A DNA stretch of 64,000 nucleotides from a virus. The notes beneath the pieces were generated by a model that was not told the origin of the DNA, did not search any database, and saw nothing but the letters and a program-made list of their open reading frames with translations. The stretch lies in IMG/VR virus record IMGVR_UViG_3300046804_006785; one strand, 5' to 3'. How positions within the stretch are numbered: the stretch's first letter is position 1; every line of letters begins with the position of its first letter. The position numbers and the translations under genes were made by a program. Positions 4,662-54,737 of this stretch are shown here, piece by piece.

Positions 4662-4997
4662 AACCGGGCATCAAACCCCGGTTATAACCGTTTGTAGGTA
4701 TTTTGTAAATTTTGGGTAATTTGGGAACAATTTTGTCTATTTTGTGTAAATTTGCTACTATTTTGATTAATACGCTTATATAGCTTAATATATAAATGTA
4801 ACATAACTAATAATGCTTATGTAGTTTAGTGGTTAGATCGTTGATTTGGGTAGTTTGGAATGGTGAGCGATCGCTCCTAAGATGAAATCTTAGCTATTTA
4901 CTAGAATCTTTTAAAACTTGAAAGCCTTATATATCAATACTTTTAAAGGTGATCCAAAGTTCGTAAAATTCTATATCTATTACGAATATTGGATCAC
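4662..4997. other. Putative replication origin module 1
   Basis: Non-coding and directly downstream of rep; AACCGGGCATCAAA motif, 10-bp-phased T tracts at 4691-4770, inverted repeat GTGATCCAA..TTCGTAA / TTACGAA..TTGGATCAC at 4949-4997. Confidence 0.55.
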
Positions 4998-5100
4998 TCT
5001 GAAATCTTTACATAGCAACAGGCCTGATTTTATGAGTCCTGGAGGCAAAGTTGTAAATAGACCTATGAATGTTTGTCTTTACGTACAAGTATAAAAAATA

Positions 5101-5155
5101 TTTTTAAATTAAGTATTGACTTATTTTTCTATATACCCTAATATAGAAATATAGA
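5101..5155 (+). promoter_or_regulatory. Sigma70-type promoter, family 1, copy 1
   Basis: TTAAATTAAGTATTGACTTATTT..CTATATACCCTAATA.AGAAATATAGA, near-identical to 6534-6588. Confidence 0.7.
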
Positions 5156-5175
5156 AGAACAGGAGAATAAAACAA

Positions 5176-5799
5176 ATGACAGCTACACTTTCTTTCAAAA
5201 TCCGTACAATCAAAAACCAGATCGCTGCTTGTTTACGGGAAATTGCTAGAGGTGTTAAGTCATTTATTGATCGCCTGGTTGTTTTAGAAAGCAAACTAGA
5301 TGACTTAGAAAAGGCAAAACAAGTGGAAAAATACATTGAATTGTCCACCTACAGAAGCGCGGGCGTAAATGCCTATTTAGTGGAAGAGGGAAAAGACCAT
5401 ACACACAATATGTATGGAACTCCTATTGATGAAGAAAACCAGCAACGCGCTTACAGATCAAAATCTCACACTGTTAAGGTAAGAATAGATAATTTATCCG
5501 ATGGTATCTACCGCTTTGTAGAAGCAGGTGGTAGTACAGGTAAAAAAGTTGTGAAAGGTTGGTTAAAAATTGTCGGTGGTGAAATCATTGAAGAGTCGGA
5601 TAATCTTGCTTCTTTGATTGTTGGTAATGCTGCAGCAAACCTTCCAGAATTAGAAGGCAGTCAAAAGCAAATAGCCTGGGCTGTTCAAATCCGTGAAAAA
5701 GCTATTGCTAAATTCAAAAAATTAGGCAACGACGTTCCTAATGTTTTGAATCAGACTACTGATGCTAAATGGTTTATTGAAAATAGAAGTTCTTTATAA
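5176..5799 (+). CDS. Hypothetical phage protein (C-terminal LPELEGSQKQIAWAxxIR motif)
   Basis: 207-aa ORF with AGGAG RBS after a promoter; the motif is common in phage proteins. Confidence 0.7.
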   Translation: MTATLSFKIRTIKNQIAACLREIARGVKSFIDRLVVLESKLDDLEKAKQVEKYIELSTYRSAGVNAYLVEEGKDHTHNMYGTPIDEENQQRAYRSKSHTVKVRIDNLSDGIYRFVEAGGSTGKKVVKGWLKIVGGEIIEESDNLASLIVGNAAANLPELEGSQKQIAWAVQIREKAIAKFKKLGNDVPNVLNQTTDAKWFIENRSSL

Positions 5800-5987
5800 T
5801 GCTACAGCACAACTATGACCGTGACGGCTATCACAGATTAATTAGCCATCTCACAAATCAAAAAATAGAAACTACAGCAGACATCAGAAAACTTTCTTGC
5901 CTTCCTGATGAACTAAGAAAGTCCGATTTACGCAGACTTGAAGATTTAAGCGCAATTGTACAATTTTTGGAAGAACACAATGGTTAG
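5799..5987 (+). CDS. Hypothetical protein
   Basis: 62 aa; TAATG coupling with the upstream gene. Confidence 0.6.
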   Translation: MLQHNYDRDGYHRLISHLTNQKIETTADIRKLSCLPDELRKSDLRRLEDLSAIVQFLEEHNG

Positions 5988-6495
5988 CTACAAAACCGAA
6001 GTATATACAGCTACTAAAGCATATACATCGCATCGTAACTTATCAGCAAACGAGTTAGTAGGGATTGACGATGCAAACTATGACAATATACCCAATGTTT
6101 TAAAAACAGAACTGGGAACAATTGATATTTCCAATCAACGCGACGGTTTCATTCCTAGTCTGGAAGCCTATGAAAACCCTGGTGATCTATGGTCACATAG
6201 CAAAAGAACTGATTGGTACACTCACATACTGACAGGCGTTAAAGTAAAAAAAGACGTAGTTAAGTCTCCAGATTACGATAAACCTGACGGTAATGGTAGC
6301 TGCACCACAATTTTAATTGTTAAAATTCCATTACCAGATGGACGTGGGAAGAATCCAAACAGCCACAACAACAGGGTTTCTTTAGGGTTGTCAAAGGATA
6401 TTAAACTCACTGAAGACCAGTGGAAAGTCGTGGAACGCTTAGGACACGGCAAAGGATACTCTGAGGGTATCCGTAACCTGTTGAAAAATGTATAA
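5980..6495 (+). CDS. Hypothetical protein with possible C-terminal ribbon-helix-helix DNA-binding segment
   Basis: ATG at 5980 overlaps the upstream gene; C-terminus IKLTEDQWKVVERLG..GYSEGIRNLL. Confidence 0.55.
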   Translation: MVSYKTEVYTATKAYTSHRNLSANELVGIDDANYDNIPNVLKTELGTIDISNQRDGFIPSLEAYENPGDLWSHSKRTDWYTHILTGVKVKKDVVKSPDYDKPDGNGSCTTILIVKIPLPDGRGKNPNSHNNRVSLGLSKDIKLTEDQWKVVERLGHGKGYSEGIRNLLKNV

Positions 6496-6503
6496 CTATA
6501 AAC

Positions 6504-6532
6504 AGCTAGTAAAATTAGTTACTAGCTTTTTT
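6504..6532 (+). terminator. Intrinsic terminator
   Basis: AGCTAGTAA-aattag-TTACTAGCT followed by a T tract. Confidence 0.7.
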
Positions 6533-6533
6533 A

Positions 6534-6588
6534 TTTTAAATTAAGTATTGACTTATTTCTCTATATACCCTAATAGAGAAATATAGAG
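6534..6588 (+). promoter_or_regulatory. Sigma70-type promoter, family 1, copy 2
   Basis: Repeat of 5101-5155; contains the perfect 11-bp inverted repeat TATTTCTCTAT/ATAGAGAAATA. Confidence 0.7.
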
Positions 6589-6615
6589 AATAAACAAAAC
6601 AACAGGTGAGACGAC

Positions 6616-7134
6616 ATGACAGTTCTAACATTCGGAAAATATAAAGGATCTGACCTATCTGAAGTCCCCAAAGATTATCTAGAATGGGGTGTTAGCAAAC
6701 TAGACTCTTCTAAGTGGCGCAAAGAGTTTCAAAATGAGCTAGACCGTCGCAAAAATGAAACTCAACATCTGCTTAATACCGATCCTGATAAATTGTTTGG
6801 AAAGCTAGAAAGGGAAGCTTTACGCAGCATCCATCAAGAAATGGAAGGTCATGAACATGAGTATGATAGAGTAGATATATACACTGAAGCGGAAAACCGA
6901 GCTAATTCAAAATTAAAAGCTTTGCAAGCAGATAAAGCATTGAAAGAATTAAAAATTCAATATGCTGGCTTATTAGGGATTGATTTAAAAATGATGGACA
7001 AGATGGAGCAGACTTATCATTGTGAACAGTTAGGTCGCAGTAATTTTCAGACTGAAAGTAAGTATAAGCTGGCTATGGAGTATTTTAAAAAGAAAGACGC
7101 GCTGTTGGAGGTTGCCATTACTCTTTATTTTTAA
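6616..7134 (+). CDS. DUF3820 / ExoX C-terminal-like domain protein
   Basis: N-terminal LTFGKYKGSDLSEVPKDYLEW motif. Confidence 0.65.
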   Translation: MTVLTFGKYKGSDLSEVPKDYLEWGVSKLDSSKWRKEFQNELDRRKNETQHLLNTDPDKLFGKLEREALRSIHQEMEGHEHEYDRVDIYTEAENRANSKLKALQADKALKELKIQYAGLLGIDLKMMDKMEQTYHCEQLGRSNFQTESKYKLAMEYFKKKDALLEVAITLYF

Positions 7135-7298
7135 AACGTGGACTAGGTTTAAGCAGACAAGCCACTTAAACACACGGTATGAAACCGACGTTTATCCACT
7201 TGTGTATTCTATCCTATTTTAGAGTCTTAATAGTATAATATTACTATTGAGACTTTTTTATGTTTTAATATAAAATACTATATAGGAGATAACATAAA

Positions 7299-7853: not shown

Positions 7854-7910
7854 AAAAGTCTTTGTGTATCAACTATGTTACAGTAAAACAAGTCTAGCAA
7901 TGTAAACAAT

Positions 7911-13030: not shown

Positions 13031-14434
13031 TTAAAGTTTATTATCATAGGCTGAATGTGTCCTTCCCATTGGCAGATTTGGTGATATAGCAGATCCGTAA
13101 AGTCGGGCTGTTGTTGAATTGTGAGGGACTGTAAATACGCGCCTATCTGCAATCAAAATACCACCAGCAAAAGCACCACTACCAGGATAAGTGACACTAG
13201 GTGTAGTAGTTGCATCTGACATAGAGCCATATATTCTTGCTGTAGTAGAGTTGAAAGGAATAAGAAACACTTGTCCATCTGGTAATAACACGCCACTTGC
13301 AAAAGCACCATTACCAGGATATGTAGAGTTAGATGTGATTAGTGTATTAATTGATGGATCGTATATCATCGCGCTTGTAGCATTGAACGGTACACAGAAT
13401 ACTCGACCATCTGGTAATAATACACCACCAATAAAAGCGTTATTGCCTGGATAAGTACCCGTAGGGGTAATTACTGTATTTGCTAAAGGATCATAAATTC
13501 TTGCTGTAGTAGAGTTGTGTGGTACACAGAATACCCTTCCATCTAGCATCAATACACCACCAGCAAAAGCAGCGTTTCCTGGATAAGTACCATTAGGTGT
13601 AATTAATGTGTTAGCCGTTGGATCGTATATTCTTGCTGTAGTGGATCTAAATGGTACACAGAAAACTCTACCATCTGGCAGCAACACACCACCATAGAAA
13701 GATTGACCACCTGGATAAGTGCCGTTAGGTGTAGTTAATGTGTCAGTAGAGGCGTTGTATATTCTAGCTGTAGTAGAGTTGAAAGGAATAAGAAATACCC
13801 GACCATCAGGCAACAAAACACCACCAGAAAAAGCATCATTCCCAGGATAAGTACCGCTAGGAGTGGTCAGCGTGTTAGTAGATGGGTTAAATATTCTAGC
13901 TGTTGTTGATTTAAACGGAATACAAAATACTCTATTGTCTGATAACAATACACCACCATAGAAAGCGTTACTGCCAGGGTAAGTACCATTAGGTGTAGTT
14001 AATGTATCAGTTATAGCACCGTAATTGAATTGCCGAACATCAATAAATTTAGCAGTTGGTGCTAGTGGGAAGTAGCGGAAGTCTAAAGTATCATCTTCTG
14101 TAAAACTAGGCCGGAAAACTTGAACTAAACTTAGGTCTAATGTGAATACTTCTATATTCTGACAAGTCCATTTAAAAGACTCACAGCAATATAATGCACC
14201 GTTAAAAATTATGGGTTGTCCTAAGTTAGTGGTAAGAAAATTATCTATCTCTATGTATTCTGTAAACTTAGTCACTACTAATGATAGTGCCTGTGTTTTG
14301 GCAACTTGGTTAATTTGGTTTCTGTTGCCTTTCTCATCTACACCACCATAGTAATTTTGAGTTAGATATGAAGATTCAAAGCTGAGAGCATTTTCCCAGC
14401 TTAGTTTAAGGGAATTAGGGGCAGTAGCAAACAT
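13031..14434 (-). CDS. Divergent gpM/Dit-like N-terminal domain fused to a 7-bladed kelch-like beta-propeller
   Basis: First ~110 aa resemble a distal tail protein (..IDNFL..N.GQP...YCCESFKW....FTLDLSLVQVFRP); seven GGVLLPDGRVFCVP repeats. Confidence 0.7.
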   Translation of the reverse strand: MFATAPNSLKLSWENALSFESSYLTQNYYGGVDEKGNRNQINQVAKTQALSLVVTKFTEYIEIDNFLTTNLGQPIIFNGALYCCESFKWTCQNIEVFTLDLSLVQVFRPSFTEDDTLDFRYFPLAPTAKFIDVRQFNYGAITDTLTTPNGTYPGSNAFYGGVLLSDNRVFCIPFKSTTARIFNPSTNTLTTPSGTYPGNDAFSGGVLLPDGRVFLIPFNSTTARIYNASTDTLTTPNGTYPGGQSFYGGVLLPDGRVFCVPFRSTTARIYDPTANTLITPNGTYPGNAAFAGGVLMLDGRVFCVPHNSTTARIYDPLANTVITPTGTYPGNNAFIGGVLLPDGRVFCVPFNATSAMIYDPSINTLITSNSTYPGNGAFASGVLLPDGQVFLIPFNSTTARIYGSMSDATTTPSVTYPGSGAFAGGILIADRRVFTVPHNSTTARLYGSAISPNLPMGRTHSAYDNKL

Positions 14435-22216: not shown

Positions 22217-22542
22217 ACCCTAGATTTGCTGATTGGGATACCTTTCTCGATCAGCCTATTCATATAGTTTTTGAGTGCATTGAGGCACTTGAAAAGAACA
22301 GGAAAGAGCAGTCAAACATTGAGGCAAGGGTTCACGCTATCGGATGGTCTGGACTGTTTAACGGGTTCAAAAAAGAAACAGATCCGAGTATTGATTTTGT
22401 GGACTTGTTGCCCTTTGCAGACGAAATTAAAGAGAATAATCGGAAAGTCAGTGAACGGACAGAAGCGATTATTTCTGAATTAATTAAAACTAATGGTTTG
22501 TCTGCTCCTGTTCTGTCCGCGTTGAGTCTGCTATTACCTTGA
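22144..22542 (+). CDS. -1 frameshift extension of the chaperone (gpGT analogue)
   Basis: G GGG GAG at 22144-22150; the -1 frame is open for ~130 codons to TGA 22540-22542 with no ATG (..PIDWSSIYWRIQSY..DLLPFADE..). Confidence 0.75.
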   Translation, partial: GGATATSPIDWSSIYWRIQSYRILDPRFADWDTFLDQPIHIVFECIEALEKNRKEQSNIEARVHAIGWSGLFNGFKKETDPSIDFVDLLPFADEIKENNRKVSERTEAIISELIKTNGLSAPVLSALSLLLP

Positions 22543-22585
22543 TTGTAAATTACGAATTTTAATTACGAATTTACAATCTTTTTTT
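22541..22585 (+). terminator. Hairpin/terminator before the TMP, with AATTACG repeats
   Basis: GATTGTAAATT...AATTTACAATC followed by a T tract. Confidence 0.55.
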
Positions 22586-34600: not shown

Positions 34601-37600
34601 GGGTGATTATGGTGCGATCGCTTCCCAACCTCCGGCAACTGCTAAAACTAAAGCTAATACTGTTACTCCTGCCAGTCAGTCTAAGGGCGAATCTGTAATC
34701 AGAATGCAGAGATTAGGACAAAAAGATGAATTTGGATTAGAAAAAATCCAGTTAGCTGTCATCAAACAGGGAAAATTAATTGATAGATTTATTGTTAATT
34801 CTGGTAAGGCTGATACTCAGATATTTGGTGGTGCAGGTGAAACAAAAGCAGGGTCTAAACAACCTGTAGAGTTTGGTAGTTATAGACTTGGTAAAACTAC
34901 TCCTAGCGGTAATAAGGCTAAAATGGGGAATGAGTTTATAAGACTTGAACCTGATTTTAAAACAGAACGAACCGCTATTGGTTTCCACATTGATAAGGAC
35001 AGACTTGTTGATCCTGGCTCTAGTGGTTGTATTGTATTTGCTAACGAAGCAGAATTTAATAAATTTAAGCAAGCATTAAAGAGTACGGGTATTAAGAGTT
35101 TTGTCTTTGATCAATCCGTTGGTGCGGTAGAAATAGCCAAGAATGTCGCATCACAGGTTAAGCCGTTACCAAAATCAGGAAACCGCGCTTTTGATGCAAG
35201 TAATATTGTCTCTAAAAACAAATTGCAATCCTTAGTAGTCCAAGAATTAAGTACAGGCAGACTCTTAGGAAGTATAAATAGTAATGTATCCCCGGTATCA
35301 TCTGCATCAACTGTTAAATTAATTGTTGCTGATTTAATGACTGATGCAATTAATCAAGGTACTGCAACATTGCAAGAGACTTTAACAATTAAACCCGGTG
35401 AAGTTGCTCAATGGAGTGCTATTAACAAATCAGGACAGAAACGTAGAATTTCTGAATTACTTACTCAGATGATTGTGAAGTCTGATAATACGGCTGCAAA
35501 TGTTTTAATCAATCGTCTTGGCGGGTTAGATAAGCTAAACCAACTAGCTGCTGCTAAAGGTTACACAAATACAAAATTTAATAAATATTTCTTGTTACCA
35601 GGAGAAGACACTAAAAAAGGAAATGTATCAACCGCAGGAGATGTAACTAGTGCTGCTAGAGAATTATTAGTAACAAATAGCCCGTCTGATAAATTAGCTG
35701 CTGATGCCTTGAAAAAAACAAGGAATTTTAAATATCAAGGTGAAGTAGGCGGAAAAATTGGTAATAATTCTAAGATCATTGGTAATGTTGGCGTTGTCAG
35801 TATTAACGGAAAACTATACCTTGTTACTGCTTTTGCTAATACTAATGGTAATGACTTAACTAACCGTAAATTCATTACTAACGCTACTAATGACGTTGTT
35901 AAGCAAATTCAAGGTATGCAGTCTTCAGAATTGCAAACCATCCCAACACAAGCCAAACCACGTAGAAAGAGATTACCCGTTCCCATATTACCGCCTGTAC
36001 CTGGTACTATAGGTATTAAAAACTCTTCAGGAATATCTCAAGGTGGTAATGACTTAAGCTCTGAAGAATATGCAAAACTAACCCCACTTGGTAAGCAACT
36101 TTATGAACTGCGTAAGAATAAGTATATTTTAGCTTTAGCTAATGCTGTGGCTAATGCTGAGGGTTCTGATTTTAGAAAAAATACTAGGAACTTTGGCTAT
36201 GGTCTAACGATTGGTGGTGAGAATGTTACTGATTTCTCTAAACATCCCTATGTGGGAACTGGTAGGAAACCAACTTGGATTAAAGCCATTAATGATGCCA
36301 GTACAGCAGCCGGACGCTATCAGATGATGAATTTTAACGCATCTATTCAAGCGGCTAAAAAACAGTTTGGTAAAAATGCCATGCCGGATATGTTTAAGTT
36401 GACCGACTATCAAGGTCAGGATCAACCAAGCTTTAGCCCTGGTATGCAAGATTTATATTTTACTTATTCCTTAAAATCTAGAGGTGTTTTAGATCAAGTT
36501 TTAGCAGGTAAAGTAGATACATCTGTATTAAATAAACTTGCTCAACATTATGCAAGTATCCAGTCTGGTAAGGATAAAAGCGCATATTTCGGACAAGGAG
36601 CACCACAAGGGCAGCATAGTAATTTCTTAAAGACTTATCGAGAAAATCTTAATAGGTTGAATGAACTAGTTAATACTGGCGGGACTCTTACTCCTGACAA
36701 AATGCAATCAAGTGTTACATATGCAACAAATCTTAAATTCCATACAGCCGATGGACAAAATGCAGCTAACCTGATGAATACTGAGGCTCAGGAATTAACA
36801 GACAGAGCACAGCAATTGTTAGGGTTATATCGTTTACTTAGACAAAGTACTGAATCTATGTTTCAAATTCAAAGCAGTATGAAAGATACTGATTTAGATA
36901 TTTGGAAAACTATAAGAGAGGGTTTGTCTCCCAACATGAGTAATGTTGAACGATTCTTGATTGGCTATCAAGAGCTTATTCGTTCATTAGAGAAAAAGAG
37001 AGAAGCGTTAGAAAAAACAGTTCGTGATACTCAAGGTGTAATTGACAATGAAAAATTACTAAAAGCTGCTTTTGTTGCATCTTTAGAGAAATTTCCAGAC
37101 AGTCCTGAACAGGCACTTAACGCAATTAATACAAATAACGAGGTTTTTAAAACTACTGTACGTCAGAATATACAAGCTAAAAAAGCATTAGCTGAATTGA
37201 ATCAAAATACTCCTAAAATACTTGAAGCAAGAGTAGATCAATTTAATAAAGAAGAAATATCTAGACGAACAGGAGTTACATTACAAACTGAAAAACTCCG
37301 AATTAGTTTACTCCAAAAACAAGTTGAACAGCGTAAACTATTACAGCAATTAAACCCACTTGATCCAAGGTCTGCTAGAACTGCTGATTTAGAAGCAAAC
37401 CTAGCTTTATTAAATACCGAGAACGAATATAAAGAAAAGCTTAATGCTATTACAAATGAAGAAAATAGTCGGTCTATTTCTTCTGAAGAAGCTAAGAAAA
37501 GAAGGGACTACGTTAAGGAAGAATTTGAACTCAATAAACAAAATATTGAGTTAAAACAAAAAAATGATCGTATTGCTGAAAATGCAAATATTCCTTCTAG

Positions 37601-38804: not shown

Positions 38805-38829
38805 TATATCTAAATCAACATAAAAAATT

Positions 38830-38862
38830 GCAGTCAACTAATCATAGCTGACTGCTTTTTTT
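38830..38862. terminator. Bidirectional terminator after the TMP
   Basis: GCAGTCA..TGACTGC with A tract upstream and T tract downstream. Confidence 0.65.
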
Positions 38863-38900
38863 GAGATTAAAAAGATGGTTCTCATATTCTACTACAAATA

Positions 38901-39071
38901 TTAATCATCATCGGGTTCAGCTAATATTAAATTAGCTAATTCTGGTATAGGCGGATTATCTATGAACTCTTTAAGGATGTTTTCTACTACATCTGTATTT
39001 AAAGTTAATTCTGTCATCAGATCGCCTATGGGTGGTAATGTTTCAGGTTTGGGAGTGAATTTAGTGGTCAT
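38901..39071 (-). CDS. Small acidic protein (56 aa); missed by the ORF track
   Basis: MTTKFTPKPETLPPIGDLMTEL...LAEPDDD; overlaps the end of the upstream membrane gene. Confidence 0.55.
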   Translation of the reverse strand: MTTKFTPKPETLPPIGDLMTELTLNTDVVENILKEFIDNPPIPELANLILAEPDDD

Positions 39072-39243
39072 TTTTTTCCTTATCTGCTACTGCTAATCCG
39101 GCACTACCTGATGCTAAAGCTAAGGAAATATTGAACGCGCCACTGCTTTTTGCATCGGATAAATTAGGAGCATACACTACTGCTAAGGCTAGTATAGTAC
39201 TAAGCGCGGCAAATATTCCCGGTAATACTGTGGTGTTTTTCAT
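39061..39243 (-). CDS. Small two-TM membrane protein (holin-like)
   Basis: MKNTT start with ATGA overlap on the portal stop; two hydrophobic segments and a charged C-terminus. Confidence 0.5.
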   Translation of the reverse strand: MKNTTVLPGIFAALSTILALAVVYAPNLSDAKSSGAFNISLALASGSAGLAVADKEKNDH

Positions 39244-41150
39244 AGTTTTGGCATCATTAGTGAGTTTGAGTAGTATTTTACGCATTTACAATTAGACTTA
39301 CATTGACAGTTTTCTCCAGGGTTAGGCAGTGTACCAATTTGCGCCCATCCCATCCCAGTATAACGAATACAATCATCACAGCTATGGTTTGCTGCTATTA
39401 CTCTACGTTCCCATAAATAACCATTGCGCTTGTGTCCTTCTAGTCTGCCACGTTCTTTAAAGTGATTAGTTTTGTTATAGTACATTTTTATACGCGCTTC
39501 TATCTGTGCTTCAGATAGATTGCCTCTTAAAATATCTCGTGAAAATCTACGCAGATATTGATATTCAAGATTTAATTGACCATTAATTAATGAGTAGTCC
39601 TGCCAGTCCATCTGTTTTGCTCCACCTATACCTAATGCATATTGATAGATAGCTAAACTTCTTAGTAGTTCTGCTGTTTGCCGTTCCCATCTAGCAACGT
39701 TAATTTTTCCAGAAAATAAGGCGTTATTCACAACTTCGCCTAGTTCTAAATGATCTTTAATCGCTTGTTCTGTTAACTGCTCTATCTGACTTTCCTTAAC
39801 AAACCGACCTTTCTTAGAACCGTTGGCATAGTGATAACGTTGGCTTTTTTTGTTCCAAGTAAAGTTAGTAGATTCTTGGTTCTTGGACTTAGTTAATAAG
39901 TCAGGTTGATACTTTTTTTGGCTGGTTTCCACCTCCTCTATAGGTGCTTCTTCTAAGGCTGTGATATTTGCTAATGCTCTCATTTTATTGAGTACATCTA
40001 AATCATATTTGCTGAAAGTTCCAGTAGTTACACAATTATTAATAATGTTTAATAATGCGATTGTATCTGTATTATCTTCTGTGACAAGAGGAAAAGTACC
40101 ATAGTCGTCTAACTCGCCAAAGTTAAACTCTAACATTGGGCGGATCGCTTGTTCAATTAATGCTTCCCCTACTATCTGCATTTGGGATCTAGTCACTAAT
40201 CTAAGAATAGTTTGATGTCCTTCGTTTAGGTTACTATCGCCACTGCTGACCGTGCCTGTTCCTGTAACTGTGCGAGGGACTAGCCAAGCTAACATGATCA
40301 TTGATTCTAAGTAGCCTAAGATATTGGTGAAGAAACTACCGTCCGTTTCATGAGAAATTGCCTCAATCTCATCAGCTAAATCAATTACTGCATAGGAATT
40401 ATTTTTGATATCTTCTAAGTTCCTAGACATGACATAACCCTGATTAAATAATCTTGGCTCACCTGTGTTTGGATCTATATAAGGCTGTCCAGTTTCAGGG
40501 TTAATCATGCTGACAGAATTATTACCAGTATCGGTTTTTCCTACTAACAATTTAGTGGCTTGTCTTTCTGATGCTACAGCCATACAAGCGTTTATTACTT
40601 TTGTTAGTTCCCAGTAAGGATATGCCCGACGGCAAATAGCTACACCGTGAGGATCACTACCTAAAGCGAGATAAGGCTGGTTTACCAAATGAATCCCATT
40701 CTCGTAGGGAATATAGATATTGCTAAATCTTAGATAATTTACCCTACTTATTTGTCCGTTGAATCCTTCAAACCAATAATATCTAGGATCTACTGTTCTG
40801 ATAATGTCTAAGTATGCCTTTCTTTTTTTAATCTTGTAACTCACTTCTGAAAATGACTTACCAAAGGGGATAAATGTCAGCATTTGTGAAACGACATTTA
40901 ACCAACTACCTTCCATTGCGTTGATTGAGTTTCTGACAAAAGTTTGAATATCATGGTCAGGATGTTGATATTTATCTAGCATAGAAACACCCAGCAATAT
41001 TCGCAGGTCATTAGCCGCGCTGGCTACTGGTGAATCTTTTAACATCTCTACATAAGTATTAGCTATGTTTCTATCAGACTGTTGTACCATCCCGATCCAA
41101 GTTGATACTAATGCTTGGACTTTAGGGGAAAGAATATTAGTGTTTAACAT
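39240..41150 (-). CDS. Portal protein (DUF935-like) fused to a head-morphogenesis (MuF-like) domain
   Basis: FGKSFSEVSY, DPHGVAICRRAYPYW and LIEQAIRPMLEFNFG portal motifs; C-terminal WERRV..HSCDDC..PGENCQCKSNCKC. Confidence 0.85.
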   Translation of the reverse strand: MLNTNILSPKVQALVSTWIGMVQQSDRNIANTYVEMLKDSPVASAANDLRILLGVSMLDKYQHPDHDIQTFVRNSINAMEGSWLNVVSQMLTFIPFGKSFSEVSYKIKKRKAYLDIIRTVDPRYYWFEGFNGQISRVNYLRFSNIYIPYENGIHLVNQPYLALGSDPHGVAICRRAYPYWELTKVINACMAVASERQATKLLVGKTDTGNNSVSMINPETGQPYIDPNTGEPRLFNQGYVMSRNLEDIKNNSYAVIDLADEIEAISHETDGSFFTNILGYLESMIMLAWLVPRTVTGTGTVSSGDSNLNEGHQTILRLVTRSQMQIVGEALIEQAIRPMLEFNFGELDDYGTFPLVTEDNTDTIALLNIINNCVTTGTFSKYDLDVLNKMRALANITALEEAPIEEVETSQKKYQPDLLTKSKNQESTNFTWNKKSQRYHYANGSKKGRFVKESQIEQLTEQAIKDHLELGEVVNNALFSGKINVARWERQTAELLRSLAIYQYALGIGGAKQMDWQDYSLINGQLNLEYQYLRRFSRDILRGNLSEAQIEARIKMYYNKTNHFKERGRLEGHKRNGYLWERRVIAANHSCDDCIRYTGMGWAQIGTLPNPGENCQCKSNCKCVKYYSNSLMMPKL

Positions 41151-41229
41151 ATTTTATTGATTTAACTTTTGTTTTATTGTAGCATTTATCTATGTGTGCT
41201 ATATTTATTAATAGCTAAAAAATGATTCT

Positions 41230-48186: not shown

Positions 48187-49286
48187 GAAATTCTACTAGA
48201 TTGGTTGTTCTTAGCAGACGTACATCAGGTAATCTCAATTCATATTTCCCATTGACTCCTGCTATTCTTGCATCCCGTCAGGTCAACTATGGTACTTTGG
48301 CTGATGTAACCACTACACCTAGTGGTACTTATTCTAATGCTTTTGCTGGTGGCGTGTTATTACCAGATGGAAGAGTATTTTGTGTACCCACTACTTCTAG
48401 TACAGCAAGAATATACAACCCGGTGACAGATACATTAACTACACCTAGTGGTACTTATCCTACTATTGTGGGTAGTAGGTCTTTTGTTGGTGGTGTATTA
48501 TTACCAGATGGAAGAGTATTCTGTATACCAGACGGTACAACCACTGCAAGAATATACAATCCTATAACAGATACATTAACTACACCTAATGGTACTTATC
48601 CAGGTGGAGGTGCTTTTGTTGGTGGTGTACTATTACCAGATGGTCAAGTTTTTTGTATTCCTGCAATTTCAACTACAGCAAGAATATACAATCCTATAAC
48701 AGATACATTAACTACTCCTAGTGGTACTTATCCTGGTAATAATGCTTTTTATGGTGGTGTATTATTACCAGATGGTAGAGTATTTTGTGTACCATACAGT
48801 TCTACTACTGCAAGAATATACAATCCTATAACAGATACATTAATTACGCCTAATGGTACTTATCCTGGTGGTTTTGCTTTTTCTGGTGGTGTGTTATTAC
48901 CAGATGGAAGAGTATTTTGTGTACCCACTACTTCTAGTACAGCAAGAATATACAATCCTATAACAGATACAGTAACTACGCCTAATGGTACTTATCCTGG
49001 TGGTTTTGCTTTTTATGGTGGTGTATTATTACCAGACGGTAGGGTATTCTGTATTCCTGCAAGTTCAACCACCGCTAGAATATACAACCCGGTGACAAAT
49101 ACATTAACTACACCTAGTGGTACTTATCCTGGTAGTGAGGCTTTTTGGGGTGGTGTATTGTTACCAGATGGTAGAGTATTTTGTGTACCATACAATAATG
49201 CAACCACTGCAAGAATATACGGCTCACCATTATCTACTAATCTCCCTATGGCGAGAACTCATTCAGCTTATGATAATAAATTTTAA
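48183..49286 (+). CDS. 7-bladed kelch-like beta-propeller, putative receptor-binding protein
   Basis: Seven ~44-aa GGVLLPDGRVFCxP..TARIYNP repeats after a short N-terminal leader. Confidence 0.75.
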   Translation: MRNSTRLVVLSRRTSGNLNSYFPLTPAILASRQVNYGTLADVTTTPSGTYSNAFAGGVLLPDGRVFCVPTTSSTARIYNPVTDTLTTPSGTYPTIVGSRSFVGGVLLPDGRVFCIPDGTTTARIYNPITDTLTTPNGTYPGGGAFVGGVLLPDGQVFCIPAISTTARIYNPITDTLTTPSGTYPGNNAFYGGVLLPDGRVFCVPYSSTTARIYNPITDTLITPNGTYPGGFAFSGGVLLPDGRVFCVPTTSSTARIYNPITDTVTTPNGTYPGGFAFYGGVLLPDGRVFCIPASSTTARIYNPVTNTLTTPSGTYPGSEAFWGGVLLPDGRVFCVPYNNATTARIYGSPLSTNLPMARTHSAYDNKF

Positions 49287-49726: not shown

Positions 49727-51157
49727 ATGCCAGCACCAATTTTAGTTTTACCTCCTATTAAATGGGAATTCAGTCAGGAAAGAAAAATACAGTCCCAAAC
49801 TACTAAATTAGGTGATGGGTATGGCTTAATGGCTATCGTAACTAATTCTATTCGTACTACCGTTGAATTAATAATCCCTAATCTTAGTACAGAAAATAAA
49901 AATGACATAGTTAGTCTGTTTACTAGCTATGGTGGGATTACAAAATTCAGTTGGAGACCTTTGGACACTCTTCCTTACAAAGAGTACATTTGTGATAAAT
50001 GGAGTGTGATTCAACAAGGTACTTATTTGTGGCAGATAACCGCTACATTTACAGAACAAAAAACAGCAGAAGTGATTGTACCAATTGAAATTAGCACGGC
50101 TTTCACTAGATTAAGCTTAAAATATTTCCCGTTAGATCCTATTGCAGATTACAGTACTGTAAGAGCTTTTAATTATGGTGCTGTAACTGACATTATAACT
50201 ATCCTTAATGGTGTCTATCCAGGCAATCAGGCTTTTAATGGAGGTGTATTATTAACTGATGGTAGGGTTTTTTGTGTGCCATTTAATACTAGCCAGGCAT
50301 ACATACATAATCCATTAAATAATACAATAATTACTCCGAGTGGTTTCCCAGGTAGAGAGGCTTTTTTTGGTGGTGTTCTCATGTCAGATGGTAGAGTTTT
50401 TTGTGTTCCCGCTAACTCGACTACAGCGAGAATATATAACCCTACTACTAACACAGTGACCACGCCAGGTGGTATTTATCCTGGCAATAACGCATTTTTT
50501 GGTGGTGTACTGTTACCTGATGGTAGGGTATTCTGTGTTCCTTTTAATGCTAACCAAGCTTACATATATAACCCCACATCCAATACAGTAAGTACACCTA
50601 GTGGTTTCCCCGGTAATGGTGCTTTTGCTGGTGGTGTATTATTATATGATGGTCGCGTTTTTTGTGTTCCCTGCAATTCTACTACTGCAAGAATATATGA
50701 TCCTACAACAAATACAGTGACCATACCTGGTGGAACTTACCCCAGTAATAGTGCTTTTGTTGGTGGTGTACTGTTACCTGATGGTAGGGTATTCTGTGTT
50801 CCTTTTAATGCTAACCAAGCTTACATATATAACCCCACATCCAATACAGTAAGTACACCTAGCGGTTTCCCTGGTAATGGTGCTTTTTGGGGTGGTGTTT
50901 TATTGCCGAATGGTCGAGTTTTTTGTATACCTGCTAACTCAACTACAGCAAGAATATACAATCCTACAACTGATACAGTAAGTACTGCTAATGGTACTTA
51001 TTCAGGTAATGCTGCTTTTGCTGGTGGCGTGTTATTACCAGATGGAAGAGTATTTTGTGTACCTCGCAATTCGACCAATGCAAGACTTTATGGATCCCGT
51101 ATTTTGCCAAATCTTCCTATGGGAAGAACACATTCAGCTTTTGATAACAAACTTTAA
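49727..51157 (+). CDS. Distal tail protein (lambda gpM-like) fused to a 7-bladed propeller
   Basis: KLGDGY, YGGITKFSWRP and CDKWS..ITATFTEQ motifs; seven propeller repeats. Confidence 0.85.
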   Translation: MPAPILVLPPIKWEFSQERKIQSQTTKLGDGYGLMAIVTNSIRTTVELIIPNLSTENKNDIVSLFTSYGGITKFSWRPLDTLPYKEYICDKWSVIQQGTYLWQITATFTEQKTAEVIVPIEISTAFTRLSLKYFPLDPIADYSTVRAFNYGAVTDIITILNGVYPGNQAFNGGVLLTDGRVFCVPFNTSQAYIHNPLNNTIITPSGFPGREAFFGGVLMSDGRVFCVPANSTTARIYNPTTNTVTTPGGIYPGNNAFFGGVLLPDGRVFCVPFNANQAYIYNPTSNTVSTPSGFPGNGAFAGGVLLYDGRVFCVPCNSTTARIYDPTTNTVTIPGGTYPSNSAFVGGVLLPDGRVFCVPFNANQAYIYNPTSNTVSTPSGFPGNGAFWGGVLLPNGRVFCIPANSTTARIYNPTTDTVSTANGTYSGNAAFAGGVLLPDGRVFCVPRNSTNARLYGSRILPNLPMGRTHSAFDNKL

Positions 51158-51795: not shown

Positions 51796-52047
51796 TAGAA
51801 AATCGTCTAACCATTTTAAGGTTTCAGGACATAATCTAAACCATTCTGACTTCCCTAGAATGGCTTTATTTTGCCATAGCATATTATGTATCTTTTTCTC
51901 AAATATTGCTTCATTCTTAACAGAGTACGTTTTGTATAAGCGCAATTTAAAACCGTTTCCTGTTTGTAGTTGTTTAAGTCTTTTTTCTGGATTGTGGGAT
52001 ATCCCAATTTTGTATAAGTCCTGATCTGAGTGTATTATGTATAACAT
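51772..52047 (-). CDS. GIY-YIG-like (T5orf172/MUG113) protein
   Basis: LYII..YKIGISHNPEKRLKQLQTGN..EKKIH..EWF. Confidence 0.85.
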   Translation of the reverse strand: MLYIIHSDQDLYKIGISHNPEKRLKQLQTGNGFKLRLYKTYSVKNEAIFEKKIHNMLWQNKAILGKSEWFRLCPETLKWLDDFLLTSNSVY

Positions 52048-52105
52048 TTAATATTGATAACTTATGTGTAAAATTATATACATCTAAAATAGTTTTATAA
52101 AATGC

Positions 52106-52134
52106 TTGACATTAATTTTAAATGCCGTTATATT
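52106..52134 (+). promoter_or_regulatory. Sigma70 promoter, family 3
   Basis: TTGACA-17-TATATT. Confidence 0.75.
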
Positions 52135-52166
52135 ATTAGTGTGGTTAAAACATAGGTAAACCGGAC

Positions 52167-52544
52167 ATGACAACCGCAACATTAACAGCATACACAGTAA
52201 CTTGTGTTTGTGAAATAGCAACCATAACTACAATAGCAGGTTCAGGTTGTTGGAAACAAGCAGCTAAAAAAGCTAAATCAAGCATACAAGATATTGAGGT
52301 TAATTCTACTTTTATGGTAGAAACCGACTGGCTAAAATTAACAGAGGATGATTGCTGCAATTACGGTGATGATTGGGAAGTCACACAAAAAGCAAAAATA
52401 GTCCTATCCGTTAAAGTCAAGGCAACTGACTGGAAACAAGCAGCAACCGAAGCAATGACCGCAGCGTCAGGCGATTTAGAAATTATATCAGAGAGCGACG
52501 TTAACGTTATCTGGCAACGTGTTACAGAAGATATGGTTGATTAG
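52167..52544 (+). CDS. Hypothetical protein
   Basis: 125 aa after a promoter; internal WKQAA duplication. Confidence 0.6.
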   Translation: MTTATLTAYTVTCVCEIATITTIAGSGCWKQAAKKAKSSIQDIEVNSTFMVETDWLKLTEDDCCNYGDDWEVTQKAKIVLSVKVKATDWKQAATEAMTAASGDLEIISESDVNVIWQRVTEDMVD

Positions 52545-52633
52545 TTTAGTTTTAGGAGTTGCCTTAAATAGGTGACTCTTAAAGTTAGGCATTATCCCGA
52601 GTTGTGTCAAGTTAAAAAAATAAAGAGAATAAG

Positions 52634-52900
52634 ATGACTTTAAGAAATACAGAAAAAACAGAATACCATATCTTAGCTGCTAATAACAAAATTGTAGCTA
52701 AGTTCACATCCTGCAAAATAGAGGATGTTTGGAAAAAGTATAATACCCGTTGCAAACAGCTTCTTCTAAATGCTGAAGATATTCATGATAAAACATCTTT
52801 TGGTGGCCTGTCTTGGAAAGGTAGCCTGAAAAAAGACGGGACTGATACTGTATTGAGATTAGTCAAGGTAAGTAAATCCGGTTATGTATCTACAAACTAA
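52634..52900 (+). CDS. Hypothetical protein
   Basis: 88-aa ORF. Confidence 0.55.
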   Translation: MTLRNTEKTEYHILAANNKIVAKFTSCKIEDVWKKYNTRCKQLLLNAEDIHDKTSFGGLSWKGSLKKDGTDTVLRLVKVSKSGYVSTN

Positions 52901-53300
52901 AACTATGCAAATACTCAAAGCACAGGAACAGCTTACCAATGTTTTATCTGGTAAGTCAAATGACACAACAGAGTTGAGAAGCATTATAACTCAGATAGCC
53001 ATTAATGATCTTTGGTTTTCTGAGGAAAAGATTACCGACTGGATGCAAAAAATAAAAGAAAGTAGGACAACCTACAAAATACTTACTCCAGATGGTGAGT
53101 ATCAAGATCCTGAAATAATAAGATGTCAGGATAAGCAATATATGGTTTTACAGTTGTTACAAGCGTTTGGGAATTTGTCTGGGTTATGCCTTTGTAGGTA
53201 TAGCGAGTTAAAACCCGGTGAGGGAAATAATGAACTTCATTTAGTCTGTATGTTACTTTGGTGGCTAGAGAGATTGGATGAGCATTTAAACCTTGATTAA
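52884..53300 (+). CDS. Hypothetical protein
   Basis: 138-aa ORF followed by a terminator. Confidence 0.55.
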   Translation: MYLQTKTMQILKAQEQLTNVLSGKSNDTTELRSIITQIAINDLWFSEEKITDWMQKIKESRTTYKILTPDGEYQDPEIIRCQDKQYMVLQLLQAFGNLSGLCLCRYSELKPGEGNNELHLVCMLLWWLERLDEHLNLD

Positions 53301-53309
53301 TACAACTAC

Positions 53310-53339
53310 AAACCTAGTACAGAATTACTAGGTTTTTTT
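53310..53339 (+). terminator. Intrinsic terminator
   Basis: AAACCTAGTA-cagaat-TACTAGGTTT plus T tract. Confidence 0.75.
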
Positions 53340-53352
53340 ATTTTATATGGGG

Positions 53353-53381
53353 TTGACATTTGTTTTATCCCATGTTATATT
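53353..53381 (+). promoter_or_regulatory. Strong sigma70 promoter driving the non-coding region
   Basis: TTGACA-17-TATATT with extended -10 TG. Confidence 0.8.
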
Positions 53382-53387
53382 ATATTT

Positions 53388-54310
53388 AATCGAATAAATC
53401 CGATAGCGAAACAATCGAGCGTTGTAACACACCTCAGCGTTTATCATAAAAGCCCTAGACCAGTAAGGAACGCAAGATAAGTCGGTGAAGTCATTACCCG
53501 GCTTGAAAATTAAAGACTCTCATTTAGTTTTTAATTGGAAATTGCTTCTAGTCCGTATGCGTGCGCGTGGCGGATTCTAGTTGAGACCTAAATCCTGTAA
53601 GGATTAAAAGTGAATCAATAAAAAAGTAGTGCAGATTGCGTTGGCCATGACGATACCCTGAAATGGGGACAATATAATTGAGCGGACTTGAGGGGATATC
53701 AAAAATTTAGTAAGGTAGTGAGACTTTACTGAAGGGATTGAACCAAAAAACTAGATCCATATTTGAGCGCGATTTCCATGAACATTAGGTATTAACTAGA
53801 CGAGGGGAGCTACTTTTAGAAGTAAATGACTCCAGGTGCGGCGGTGTAGATGTTAGCAAAAGTCTATTGATACGTAGCTTAAAATATCAGATGAGTTTGG
53901 TTAAACACAGTTTGCGACTACATAAGCGCAAAAAACCATCAGAGCAAGATGTAAAAACACCCACATATCAGTAACCTAACTGATCAAGTAAATAGGACGC
54001 TTCTTGACGACACCAAGAAAAAATTCCTAAGCGGACGGGAATATTGAACCTTAGCGGGGGAGATAAATTGAAAGCAACCATTTTTCTGTATGGTGTACAG
54101 ACAAACAGTAAAATCTTAGCGGGTTCAACTGGGAGAAAGTACAAAACAGATAGAACCCCTTTGGTTGTAGGGTTTTAGTTAGGAAAGCAAAGTAACTTTA
54201 GCGGGTGAAACGCTTGAGGATTAAATAAAACAACCAAAATCACTAAAGAGCTATAGCCCTTGACATCTAGTGGATAGGATGTCAGTTATCCATAGGGTTT
54301 ATTACAGCTT
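53388..54310 (+). ncRNA. Large ornate structured ncRNA (GOLLD/ROOL-like size class; family unassigned)
   Basis: No ORF of 60 aa or more; visibly GC-richer than its flanks; many consecutive hairpins; 5'-3' closing helix 53432-53442/54208-54219; two pseudoknots at the 3' end. Confidence 0.75.
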
Positions 54311-54326
54311 AAAAAATTAAATAGAG

Positions 54327-54737
54327 AACCGGGCATTAAAAAGTTTTTTTAACTAAAAATGCTCAAACATTTATGCTGTCAATTTTTAGGTTAGTACATA
54401 ATTACTATACTATATGCTTACTGTTTTATAAATTACTCTGTTAAGTGTTTATAGTTAGCTAATTGGAATTTCCGCGCCGACTTGTAATAACAGAGTGTGC
54501 TTTATATAAGTATTCTAGGAGTTAAAATATAGTTTTTAATATGTTTTTTACTAAAGTTATTTTTAATACTGATTACTAATAATTTACTGAGAAAAATAGC
54601 AAAAAAAGCTAAGGTGATCCAAAAGTTGAGAAAATCATAATATATAAGCTATCGTTTTTAGAACTTTTGGATCACCCTACAGTTAATAACATCACTTACT
54701 AAAAAACATTAAAAGTAAAAAGCTTTATATATCAATA
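54327..54737. other. Putative origin-like module 2
   Basis: AACCGGGCATTAAA; perfect 15-bp inverted repeat GGTGATCCAAAAGTT/AACTTTTGGATCACC at 54613-54676; AAGCTTTATATATCAATA; mirrors module 1. Confidence 0.5.

Follow-up and report, generated by a model that had tools for sequence, protein, structure and literature searches.

Paralogous non-coding cassettes with conserved palindromes in freshwater cyanophages and Nodularia phages, and their possible role as origin-type stem-loops

Phage T4 has several origins per genome, among them oriF and oriG, at which a promoter-driven transcript runs into an AT-rich unwinding element; these origins share no common long palindrome and need a persistent R-loop. 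In the Sulfolobus plasmid pRN1, a terminator followed by a large stem-loop is located 3' of the primase-helicase gene orf904. This stem-loop is required for replication, needs the integrity of its stem and is conserved in structure rather than in sequence, and its authors pointed to similar stem-loops past such genes in phages (PMC4234260). The primase RepB' of RSF1010 starts on two hairpin-forming ssi sites of oriV, ssiA and ssiB, which are recognized sequence-specifically at the foot of the hairpin after origin opening, the remainder acting as structure (PMC8567376). Two distant origins are bound by gp38 of SPP1 (PMC6316719). In pSYSA of Synechocystis 6803, the only studied CyRepA1 replicon (CyRepA1 being Slr7037), the origin region is upstream of rep, an abundant transcript beside rep is thought to prime replication, and the origin works via an mRNA/antisense pair and RNase E (PMC9978351).

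The window analysed here, a stretch of viral DNA of 64,000 nucleotides, contains two palindromes, A (4948-4998) and B (54613-54676), which are its top two local inverted repeats by length (Table 1). A preliminary description had interpreted their surroundings as twin origin-like modules, each pairing a Rep-binding palindrome with a priming site at a selected distance of 286 bp. The motifs on which it was built were confirmed: motif 1, AACCGGGCATYAAA, occurs in the window only at 4662 and 54327 (0.04 expected), and GGTGATCCAAA starts exactly 286 bp later both times, at 4948 and 54613, as the left side of an inverted repeat that has TTGGATCAC as its right side and a TATAT-containing centre at both sites. 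It is also correct that one module follows rep and the other the giant ncRNA, and that the 272 nt between the motifs are dissimilar in A and B, as evidenced by an in-register identity of 33.5% (29.2 ± 3.1% at other offsets) and a gapped alignment with z = -1.1. Motif 3, AAGCYTTATATATCAATA, at 4922 and 54720, is indeed near the palindromes, but the arrangement is not alike, since it precedes palindrome A and follows palindrome B. The robust element of both modules is the palindrome: A folds at -22.4 kcal/mol (z -6.2) and B, the arms of which reach 30 nt at 80%, at -26.8 (z -6.8), equally well for both strands.

Table 1. Features of cassettes A and B and their neighbours in the window
Feature	Position	Strand	Remark
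1476-aa replication protein (rep), primase-helicase type	206..4636	+	cassette A begins directly past stop codon
Motif 1 of A, 7-bp stem-loop, terminator-like hairpin of rep	4662..4683	+	from fold
Box CCGTTTGTAGGTA past terminator	4688..4700	+	relative of CAYTTRT box in B and C cassettes
Seven helically phased T-tracts (ATTTKG, 9-11 bp spacing)	4700..4766	+	autocorrelation peaks at lags 10, 20, 30
HIP1-centred 12-bp palindrome, GCGATCGC core	4865..4876	.	present in all relatives
Motif 3 of A, CCTTATATATCAATAC box	4922..4939	+	8 nt 5' of palindrome A
Palindrome A, 19-bp stem, one mismatch and one G.T pair, 13-nt loop	4948..4998	.	
Second, weaker motif-3-like box ATCTTTAYATAGCAA	5004..5019	+	directly 3' of palindrome A
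Strong sigma-70-type promoter of next gene block	5116..5144	+	TTGACT-17-TAATAT
Consensus promoter of large ncRNA	53353..53381	+	TTGACA-17-TATATT with TG, 11/12
Abundant ~950-nt non-coding RNA	53389..54345	+	3' end is upstream boundary of cassette B
Motif 1 of B and conserved CATTAAAAAG-T-run	54327..54351	+	no local hairpin in fold
Box TCAAACATTTATGCTG...AATTTTTA	54363..54388	+	common to all B- and C-type cassettes
AT-rich spacer of cassette B	54389..54612	.	
Palindrome B, perfect 15-bp outer stem, GA/AG internal loop, second stem	54613..54676	.	
Motif 3 of B, within ~35-nt block kept past B-type palindromes	54720..54755	+	
74-aa small HTH gene and 534-aa gene with N-terminal HTH	54998..56832	+	conserved neighbours of cassette B

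The rep product upstream of cassette A matched the CyRepA1 family of NCBIfam (NF042913; E 2.3e-46, 159 bits, which is under the curated 200) as well as phrog_4913 'replication' and the ResIII/AAA helicase core, and its full-length homologues in Nodularia phages (42-44% identity) are annotated as helicase. The terminator hairpin of rep is devoid of a U-tract; its stem shows compensating changes in the relatives G004 (CCGAG/CTCGG) and L045 and is replaced by a different stem in the Nodularia phage. The box that follows is unchanged in the window, L003, L005 and L045 and reads CCGTTTGCGGGTG in Nodularia phages. The phased T-tracts are found in cassette A only, being absent from B, C and X, and this region of G004 has 22 bp missing, corresponding to about two units. 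In five of the six CL131-like relatives the HIP1-centred palindrome is 81 bp 5' of the main palindrome, which itself has an orthologue behind rep in six CL131-like relatives and two Nodularia phages. Motif 3 of A belongs to an 82-bp block in common with copy C of the close relative G002 and matches cassette B1 of the Nodularia phage over 22 nt at 95%; the weaker box 3' of the palindrome is kept in the window, L003 and L005 and is absent after copy C. The promoter that serves the following gene block shows 92% conservation in G004 and recurs at 6534.

Contigs from four RNA studies covered the ncRNA of cassette B over 53420-54334 at a word depth of 25-55, as compared with 0-5 for the neighbouring genes, and a single 854-nt contig stops at 54334; the ncRNA showed no ORF and no Rfam match. 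Of motif 1 in B, G004 and the Nodularia phage retain only the CATTA...T-run, without the CCGGGC core. Positions 54356-54612 of the cassette have 24.5% G+C, the window mean being 37%. Orthologues of palindrome B were found in G002, G004 (2957-3012) and the Nodularia phage, in which the palindrome is likewise followed by the HTH gene and the 534-aa gene. This pair, with a phrog_4779 transcriptional regulator match and a weak HTH_3 match, begins 322 nt past palindrome B in the window, and its homologues are ~317 nt past the B1 palindrome of the Nodularia phage. The motif-3 block (TTTATATA..AA..GTT.CAGCTATTTA) recurs 45 nt past palindrome B2 of that phage, and a shorter version is present past the G004 copy.

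Comparison with relatives revealed that A and B are members of a family of paralogous non-coding cassettes with three to four copies per genome, rather than twins: three are present in G002 and four in Nodularia phage kac65v151 (Rep 44% identical), and the family ranges over CL131-like freshwater cyanophages and Nodularia phages of the genus Ravarandavirus. Each cassette comprises a transcription-unit end, a short T-rich box, an AT-rich spacer (200-260 bp, 24-29% G+C), a palindrome of 50-65 bp and a CCTTATATAKCAATAC-type box. The copy most similar to A is not B but C, the third one, which is outside the window (82 bp, 97.6% identical, inverted), and C-type copies are located where transcription diverges. 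The palindromes of A and B are homologous, conserved cis elements with orthologues and paralogues in relatives. Between the window and G004, identity amounts to 85-87% in the palindrome block and 69% in the rep gene, and the remaining spacer could not be aligned. Among 14 copies, 94-95% of stem positions are paired, and several positions have changed on both sides; these observations speak for selection on the palindromes. The arms are identical over their outer 9-14 bp among all copies within one genome and differ between lineages (GGTGATCCAAAGTT vs GGTGTGTCAACATT), with GGTG-ATC-CA in every copy of the window, G002 and G004 and GGTG-TGT-CA in all four Nodularia-phage copies; B-type copies resemble those of types A and C in the arms alone. 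Loop and inner stem vary freely, with compensating changes, provided that pairing holds; the loop of palindrome A is inverted in L045, and no strand-consistent G.U bias was observed among the copies. Since the arms are uniform within a genome and lineage-specific while the inner stem compensates, the pattern points to one trans factor that would read the base of the hairpin.

The spacing coincidence is unusual on its face, because the probability of an in-register 13/14 match at most 600 nt from two anchored sites is about 3e-4, and the 286 bp are exactly equal in the window and three close relatives. These relatives, however, are not independent, as their Rep proteins are 87-98% identical and the interval is without indels; motif 1 of A in them is already AGCCGGGCAT. 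Overall, the interval from motif 1 to the palindrome was 250-286 bp in A, 233-286 bp in B and 291-297 bp in C, with the more distant relatives giving 265, 250 and 253 for A and 233, 245 and 268 for B. The interval is unequal even within single genomes (265 vs 233 in G004; 253, 245, 268 and 297 in the Nodularia phage); hence the equality of the two 286-bp intervals is, judging from the aligned genomes, a coincidence in a family of similar, unfixed length. Nor was motif 1 supported as a place of priming. The copy in A forms the left arm of the terminator stem of the helicase gene, a stem that has retained its pairing but not its sequence. The copy in B has an unconserved core, relatives having ACAGGA in place of the GC core or lacking it altogether, and marks the 3' end of the ncRNA. 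Motif 1 is simply the transcript end in both A and B. A palindrome with motif 1 as partner site at a selected 286 bp is contradicted by these comparative data, and we consider it scarcely credible.

By analogy with pRN1, we tentatively regard the palindromes as possible origin-type stem-loops for the phage Rep. They would act as DNA, extruded or exposed as hairpins upon opening of the AT-rich spacer, and a single phage-encoded protein would read the stem base, the likeliest reader being the CyRepA1-like primase-helicase encoded beside cassette A. One of these stem-loops, for assembly or priming, would be beside rep, as in pRN1, with the others behind strongly transcribed ncRNA genes, the transcription of which may help opening. 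Action as DNA rather than RNA is favoured by the like folding of both strands, the lack of a strand-consistent G.U bias and of a U-tract, the flipped L045 loop, and the end of the abundant RNA ~280 nt 5' of palindrome B. The context is origin-like in that A is directly past a CyRepA1-family rep gene, with phased T-tracts, in the low G+C content of the spacers, and in the divergent transcription at C-type copies; position and analogy are what suggest a link between the palindromes and Rep. Against it, pSYSA has its origin region upstream of rep, and in relatives the DNA upstream of rep contains a DnaA-box-like pair, a rival place for the origin; the phased T-tracts are restricted to A, and cumulative GC skew tracks gene orientation and marks none of the cassette copies. 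Co-evolving arms would suit an HTH regulator equally, such genes being conserved beside B, and the A-C identity could stem in part from gene conversion. An origin-like or Rep-linked role is nevertheless the best reading available, while the fixed distance, the priming site and the 'twin' of the preliminary description found no support.

The palindromes might instead serve a phage transcription regulator, such as the 74-aa or 534-aa HTH protein beside B, as operators or enhancers through which it controls early gene blocks downstream of the cassettes. This we think unlikely, even though the arms change together in all copies per lineage, as operators do with their repressor, the HTH gene pair adjoins the B-type palindrome in both genera at the distances given above, and a strong sigma-70-type promoter for small genes is downstream of every copy. 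The conserved half-sites are 23-36 nt apart, a variable distance that is not one helical turn, and about 80-320 nt, again variable, from the nearest -35; most early-type promoters of the window (families 5102/6534 and 52078/56941/57612/58275) are without such a site; the genes past the B-type copy of G004 are unrelated; and compensating changes in the inner stem would be unexpected for a duplex operator. Action as RNA, in the form of terminators, RNase III-type processing sites or protective hairpins of read-through transcripts, is in our opinion very unlikely. The coding strand has no U-tract, the terminator scan called no palindrome, A and B are each ~280 nt past a transcript end, and the contigs at depth 25-55 over the ncRNA stop short of palindrome B, which is a weak hint only. 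Moreover, orientation is not conserved (the L045 loop is flipped and C inverted), and the strand on which mismatches are G.T differs among copies. These data outweigh the resemblance of the very stable 19-24 bp stems with internal mismatch to RNase III substrates, the location between transcription units, and a T-run past palindrome B on the minus strand.

Recombination, which the preliminary description had named together with packaging as an alternative, received some support from flank exchange at the palindromes between genera. A 12-kb gene block that includes a DNA methyltransferase is the right-hand flank of palindrome C in G002 and of palindrome A in the Nodularia phage, in the same orientation relative to the palindrome, and flanks therefore appear to have been exchanged at the repeat. 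In addition, A and C repeat each other in inverted orientation over 82-87 bp, the first gene past cassette A varies among close relatives, and the L045 loop inversion shows that the arms recombine. Repeats would, however, be expected to exchange whatever their purpose. That the cassettes are mainly linkers at segment borders, allowing inversion or exchange with no role in replication or expression, appears quite unlikely: it leaves unexplained why the ability to form a hairpin has been maintained, why B-type copies share the arms although they lack any further homology, and why the T-rich box and the AT-rich spacer are conserved, and no recombinase is linked to the cassettes.

Among the described systems, T4 resembles these phages in having several candidate origins per genome with a transcript and an AT-rich element, although here the abundant RNA seems to stop about 280 bp before the palindrome. 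SPP1 oriL and oriR have the same initiator-binding sequence and AT-rich unwinding element at two distant sites of a siphophage, of which one is at the replication gene and the second within an extended intergenic gap, a layout that the cassettes resemble; in SPP1, however, gp38 binds direct repeats, with oriL inside gene 38 and oriR thought to be a fork barrier (PMC6316719, PMC3485210). Neither palindromes nor ncRNA genes are involved in the SPP1 origins. With pSYSA the cassettes share a related Rep family, and their position behind abundant transcripts parallels the pSYSA transcript, yet Rep identity is only about 23% over the helicase core and no palindrome family has been described for pSYSA. 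The RSF1010 ssi sites are likewise hairpin-forming inverted repeats, and conserved outer arms with a free inner stem would fit recognition at the foot. Those sites are 40 nt long, lie on opposite strands of one origin and are bound via six single-stranded bases 5' of the hairpin, whereas in the present phages a single palindrome would suffice for both strands and tens of kb separate the copies. In pRN1 the element is present once, measures ~100 nt and is 54 bp past a gene for a prim-pol/SF3 protein; the putative origin stem-loops of the present cassettes measure 50-65 nt, begin about 310 bp past the gene, number three to four per genome, mostly far from rep, and accompany a CyRepA1-like Rep. 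In both, however, a terminator stem-loop past the stop codon of a multidomain primase-helicase is followed at short distance by a large stem-loop that is conserved as a structure with compensating changes.

The three motifs of the preliminary description lie at the coordinates it had given, and the exact 286-bp offset it had reported was confirmed in both modules. Motif 1, AACCGGGCATYAAA, is present twice in the window (4662 and 54327; 0.04 copies expected), and GGTGATCCAAA, which starts 286 bp further on at 4948 and 54613, opens an inverted repeat in each case. These palindromes, A behind the rep gene (206–4636) and B within a 1.9-kb gap behind a large non-coding RNA (ncRNA), are the two longest local inverted repeats within the 64 kb, and both fold far above shuffles on either strand. 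Motif 3 was localized to 4922, 5' of palindrome A, and to 54720, 3' of palindrome B. Motif 1 and the palindrome are separated by DNA that is dissimilar in A and B, as had also been described, and since these spacers are no more alike than shuffled sequences, an ancient duplication of the whole 350-bp module was rejected. With 24–29% G+C, compared to 37% for the window, the spacers have the character of an AT-rich unwinding element beside repeated sites. Repeated units are confined to cassette A, in the form of seven phased ATTTKG tracts; the arm motif occurs solely as an inverted pair, and single copies of the arm 8-mer elsewhere lie inside genes and appear chance-like. Because an in-register 13/14 match within 600 nt of two anchored sites has a chance probability of about 3e-4, the 286/286 coincidence was worth testing in relatives.

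Coordinates of palindromes, promoters and non-coding features in the window and in the related contig G002 (L035 is a piece of a relative)
Feature	Position	Description
Palindrome A	4948–4998	19-bp stem with two imperfect positions, 13-nt loop
Palindrome B	54613–54676	perfect 15-bp outer stem, internal loop, second stem
Consensus promoter of the ~950-nt ORF-free RNA	53353–53381	
CRISPR array	L035 2626–3890 = G002 22626–23890	~17 repeats
Second ~950-nt ORF-free stretch	L035 3955–4940 = G002 23955–24940	GC-richer; directly after the CRISPR array and a consensus promoter
Promoter and terminator-plus-UP-like module families	52078, 56941, 57612, 58275; 5102, 6534; 10654, 11211, 58906	

A blastn search with both modules against 50,697 phage records gave no match, and G001, the closest record, stops short of module B; the relatives were recovered by a first pattern scan of viral contigs. 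One of them, the 118.5-kb viral contig G002, matches the window collinearly on its reverse strand, and three palindromes were identified in it: A after rep, B placed as in the window, and a third, C, at 25214–25264. An 82-bp block of C comprising motif 3 and the palindrome is 97.6% identical to that of A in inverted orientation. Palindrome C resides in a 1.7-kb gap with diverging transcription, about 80 nt before a strong promoter, and is preceded by a CRISPR array, a consensus promoter and a second ORF-free stretch. The latter ends in a terminator-like stem approximately 290 bp before the palindrome, and its 3' part is 74% identical over 147 nt to sequence of the Nodularia phage. A profile scan of viral contigs retrieved G002 and G003 only; G003 is the G002 contig minus 6,899 bp and hence not independent. 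When palindrome patterns were scanned against virus and genome collections, only chance matches in unrelated taxa were obtained outside this phage group. The matches showed no enrichment in Nostocales, so the palindrome is not a host repeat family. A MITE or other palindrome-associated mobile element was likewise rejected, as the copies are orthologous in position across two genera and elsewhere only chance matches were seen.

A palindrome follows rep in the CL131-like relatives G004, L045, L044 and L046 (Rep 67, 75, 98 and 87% identical, respectively) and in the Nodularia phages kac65v151 and 2AV2 (Rep 42–44%). Between the window and G004, the palindrome block is 85–87% identical and the rep gene 69%, and the remaining spacer is unalignable; G004 lacks 22 bp of the phased T-tract array, which is unique to cassette A. 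Motif 1 of A proved to be the left arm of a 7-bp terminator-like stem (4662–4683), the pairing of which is kept through compensating changes (CCGGG/CCCGG versus CCGAG/CTCGG) while the sequence is not, and the order rep terminator, then palindrome, is seen in cassette A and eight relatives. Three distant relatives of B were available. The B-type palindrome of G004 (2957–3012) has an upstream flank resembling window 54310–54407 (71% over 103 nt, E 9e-7) and is preceded by a perfect consensus promoter and an ORF-free stretch with the ncRNA motif TTAGCGGG. The other two are cassettes of the Nodularia phage: B1, upstream of homologues of a 74-aa HTH gene and a 534-aa gene, and B2, near the record end. 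These B-type relatives have ACAGGA in place of the GC core of motif 1, or no such core, and only the CATTA...T-run that follows and a CAYTTRT box are kept. Motif 3 is real: a 22-nt stretch around the copy in A recurs at 95% in B1, and a block of about 35 nt surrounding the copy in B recurs after B2. Motif 3 as a promoter -10 element was rejected on either strand by eye, the key -7 T not being conserved. In the Nodularia phage record NC_048756.1, gp048, a 35-aa "hypothetical protein", is annotated over a C-type palindrome (38828–38935) and is probably no real gene.

The preliminary description had taken the 286 bp to be a selected distance between the palindrome and a partner site, and this claim did not survive the comparison. 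Measured from stem start to palindrome, the A interval is 286 bp in four close genomes, which carry no indels there and of which three read AGCCGGGCAT here; it is 265 bp in G004, 250 bp in L045 and 253 bp in the Nodularia phage. The B interval, counted from the conserved C of the CATTA...T-run, amounts to 279 bp in both the window and G002, to 226 bp in G004, to 238 bp in B1 and to 261 bp in B2; C-type cassettes, measured from the GGGCTAC in their terminator-like stem, have intervals of 291 and 297 bp. Lengths differ even within single genomes: in motif-1 terms G004 has 265 bp for A versus 233 bp for B, and all four cassette intervals of the Nodularia phage are unequal, so the equality seen in the window is a coincidence. 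Cassette intervals are thus similar across the family and not fixed.

The palindromes themselves are a conserved cis element, which is probably linked to replication. Across 14 copies, the 14 outer stem positions are 95% paired; for the A-type within the CL131-like group (seven copies), 94% of 19 positions are paired, and two of the 19 have changed on both sides; the covariation score was reached by 14 of 500 shuffles. Double-sided changes at arm positions 5, 6, 7, 11 and 12 and in the inner stem are compensating changes of the kind seen in pRN1. Every copy in the window, G002 and G004 has the arms GGTG-ATC-CA...TG-GAT-CACC, and all four Nodularia phage copies have GGTG-TGT-CA...TG-ACA-CACC; the arms are hence alike within a genome and unlike between lineages, which is the most informative pattern, and they are the sole likeness of B-type to A- and C-type copies. 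Gene conversion acting on no more than 14 bp is unlikely, so the shared arms are more simply explained by one sequence-specific reader common to the copies. The inner stem and loop vary freely with pairing retained, and this combination of a conserved foot and an upper stem constrained only in its pairing fits recognition of the site as a hairpin. In L045 (3453–3505), comparison with the window and G004 shows the loop of the rep-side palindrome turned around between its flanks, a hairpin-mediated flip; this demonstrates recombination between the arms as well as tolerance of either orientation. GATC was discarded as the key feature, since the genome does not avoid it and the Nodularia phage arms lack it.

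Metatranscriptome contigs from four studies cover the ncRNA of module B (53420–54334) at a word depth of 25–55, against 0–5 on neighbouring genes, and one 854-nt RNA contig stops at 54334, within motif 1 of B; both copies of motif 1 therefore mark transcription-unit ends. The lack of RNA-contig coverage over 54340–54650 is a weak hint only. The first ~420 nt of the ncRNA (53389–54345) are about 99% identical to G002, above the flanking genes, and the part at 54013–54229 is a replaceable cassette: a 184-nt alternative to it is seen among RNA contigs, as is a 37-nt insert with another TTAGCGGG unit. Counterparts with this motif are present in G004 and the Nodularia phage. The ncRNA had no Rfam match, and the hairpins gave sub-threshold microRNA look-alikes only; long-range pairing of motif 1 of B with the ncRNA 5' part was dismissed, amounting by eye to 5 bp. 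A 49-nt insert in the B-side ncRNA of G002 holds a near-copy of the phage's own CRISPR repeat (reverse complement of L036, a piece of a relative, versus window ~53807, alignment columns 509–557). In addition, the 35-nt stretch 54657–54691, comprising the right arm of palindrome B and 15 nt, was found exactly in one RNA contig (run X15), between two copies of a 37-nt CRISPR-type repeat that ends in GGATTGAAAC and is unlike the phage's own repeat; a CRISPR spacer of a host or rival phage therefore targets cassette B.

The source of the window is a freshwater siphophage that has not been cultured. Its sequence strongly avoids GGCC (12 seen, 55–74 expected) and GGATCC (1 seen, 7–13 expected), and the cyanobacterial HIP1 octamer GCGATCGC is present 7 times, an enrichment over the 0.2 copies predicted by base composition. 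The 1476-aa rep protein matches a PHROG annotated "replication"; its helicase core alone (704–1187) matches NCBIfam NF042913 CyRepA1 (E 2.3e-46), and the N-terminal half showed no match to DUF3854. At 159 bits, below the curated cut-off of 200, the gene is related to the CyRepA1 family without being a certified member. Near-identical promoter families (TTGACA-17-TATATT type with conserved flanks) and terminator-plus-UP-like modules mark many short early-type transcription units. A 5399-aa ORF (22605–38804), positioned where a tape-measure gene is expected, is preceded at a distance of 27 bp by a 38-bp near-perfect palindrome (22541–22578) that has no relation to the cassette family. Tandem arrays of a 132-nt (44-codon) repeat occur inside three genes, on both strands (13098–14024, 48338–49262 and 50174–51136; mutual identity 65–85%).

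The preliminary description had read the modules as dual origins or, alternatively, as recombination sites. Part of the former stands, namely palindromes that are conserved and probably replication-linked, and the partner site at a fixed distance does not. That the palindromes are origin-type stem-loops for a CyRepA1-like Rep is the favoured reading, possible yet somewhat short of probable. In it, the existence and conservation of the family, the co-variation of the arms and the transcript ends are observed, and extrusion of the hairpins, the protein reading them and the connection to replication are inferred. On pSYSA the origin lies upstream of CyRepA1 (PMC9978351), which counts against an origin at the palindromes, as does a rival location upstream of rep in relatives: two adjacent DnaA-box-like 9-mers, TTTTCCCCA and TTTTCCACA, in a 360-bp gap (L003 2770–2795, just before window position 1). 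In G002, cumulative GC skew does no more than follow the orientation of genes. Recombination sites are a live alternative. In G002, palindrome C has to its right a 12-kb block that contains a DNA methyltransferase; in the Nodularia phage this block is found to the right of palindrome A, its orientation relative to the palindrome unchanged. Flanks have thus been exchanged at palindromes, as would be expected for inverted repeats of any function. The left flanks (the C-side ncRNA, or rep) remain with their own cassette type, and gene order from the block to the next B-type palindrome is identical in both phages. The points at which synteny between the two genera breaks down coincide with the cassettes (G002 27846–41209 versus NC_048756.1 107378–119353), and the genomes look like cassette-bounded segments that were inverted or moved.

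A role of the palindromes as RNA is unlikely: neither palindrome was called by a scan for intrinsic terminators (tails CTGAAATC and CTACAGTT) or possesses a U-tract; wobble pairs show no strand-consistent bias; orientation varies; and the palindromes lie beyond the transcript ends. Motif 1 of A has a terminator stem, likewise without a U-tract. A duplex operator fits poorly as well, for the half-sites are 23–36 nt apart at variable spacing, the nearest -35 element is ~80–320 nt away, unlike Cro/CI-type operators, whose half-sites lie about one helical turn apart and overlap or abut the promoter, and most early promoters are without such half-sites. Asymmetric central loops of 10–26 nt and the lack of a perfect central dyad distinguish the palindromes from telRL-type protelomerase targets. 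A more elaborate proposal, which we consider unlikely in its entirety, is a multi-origin system of transcription-assisted cassettes. Each strongly expressed large ncRNA, or the rep mRNA, would end just before an AT-rich spacer, transcription would open the spacer, and the palindrome would then extrude as a double hairpin, at the foot of which the CyRepA1-like primase-helicase would find its lineage-specific signal for loading and priming. These cassettes would also serve as joints for segment inversion and exchange between phages. If true, this would be a type of multi-origin system that has not been described in siphophages, and the large ncRNAs would gain a function.

To our knowledge, origins of the cyanophages of bloom-forming filamentous cyanobacteria are unmapped. 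No description of the palindromes was found in the literature searched, and neither an origin nor an inverted repeat is mentioned by name in the paper on the CL131 genome (PMC6293099). Lineage-specific hairpin arms beside a CyRepA1-like gene offer a concrete, testable cis/trans pair and possibly parts for cyanobacterial vectors, in which CyRepA replicons are already used (PMC10079941, PMC9978351). The cassettes also mark sites of genome rearrangement and give two unexplained large, highly expressed phage ncRNAs a fixed genomic context. The closest experimental precedent for cassette A is pRN1, in which the primase-helicase gene is followed on its 3' side by a terminator and, beyond it, a large stem-loop (PMC4234260); cassette B departs from this arrangement, being 50 kb from rep. 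In RSF1010, the replicon's own primase can read hairpin-forming ssi sites (PMC8567376), and in SPP1 one initiator acts on two distant sites with different roles (PMC6316719).
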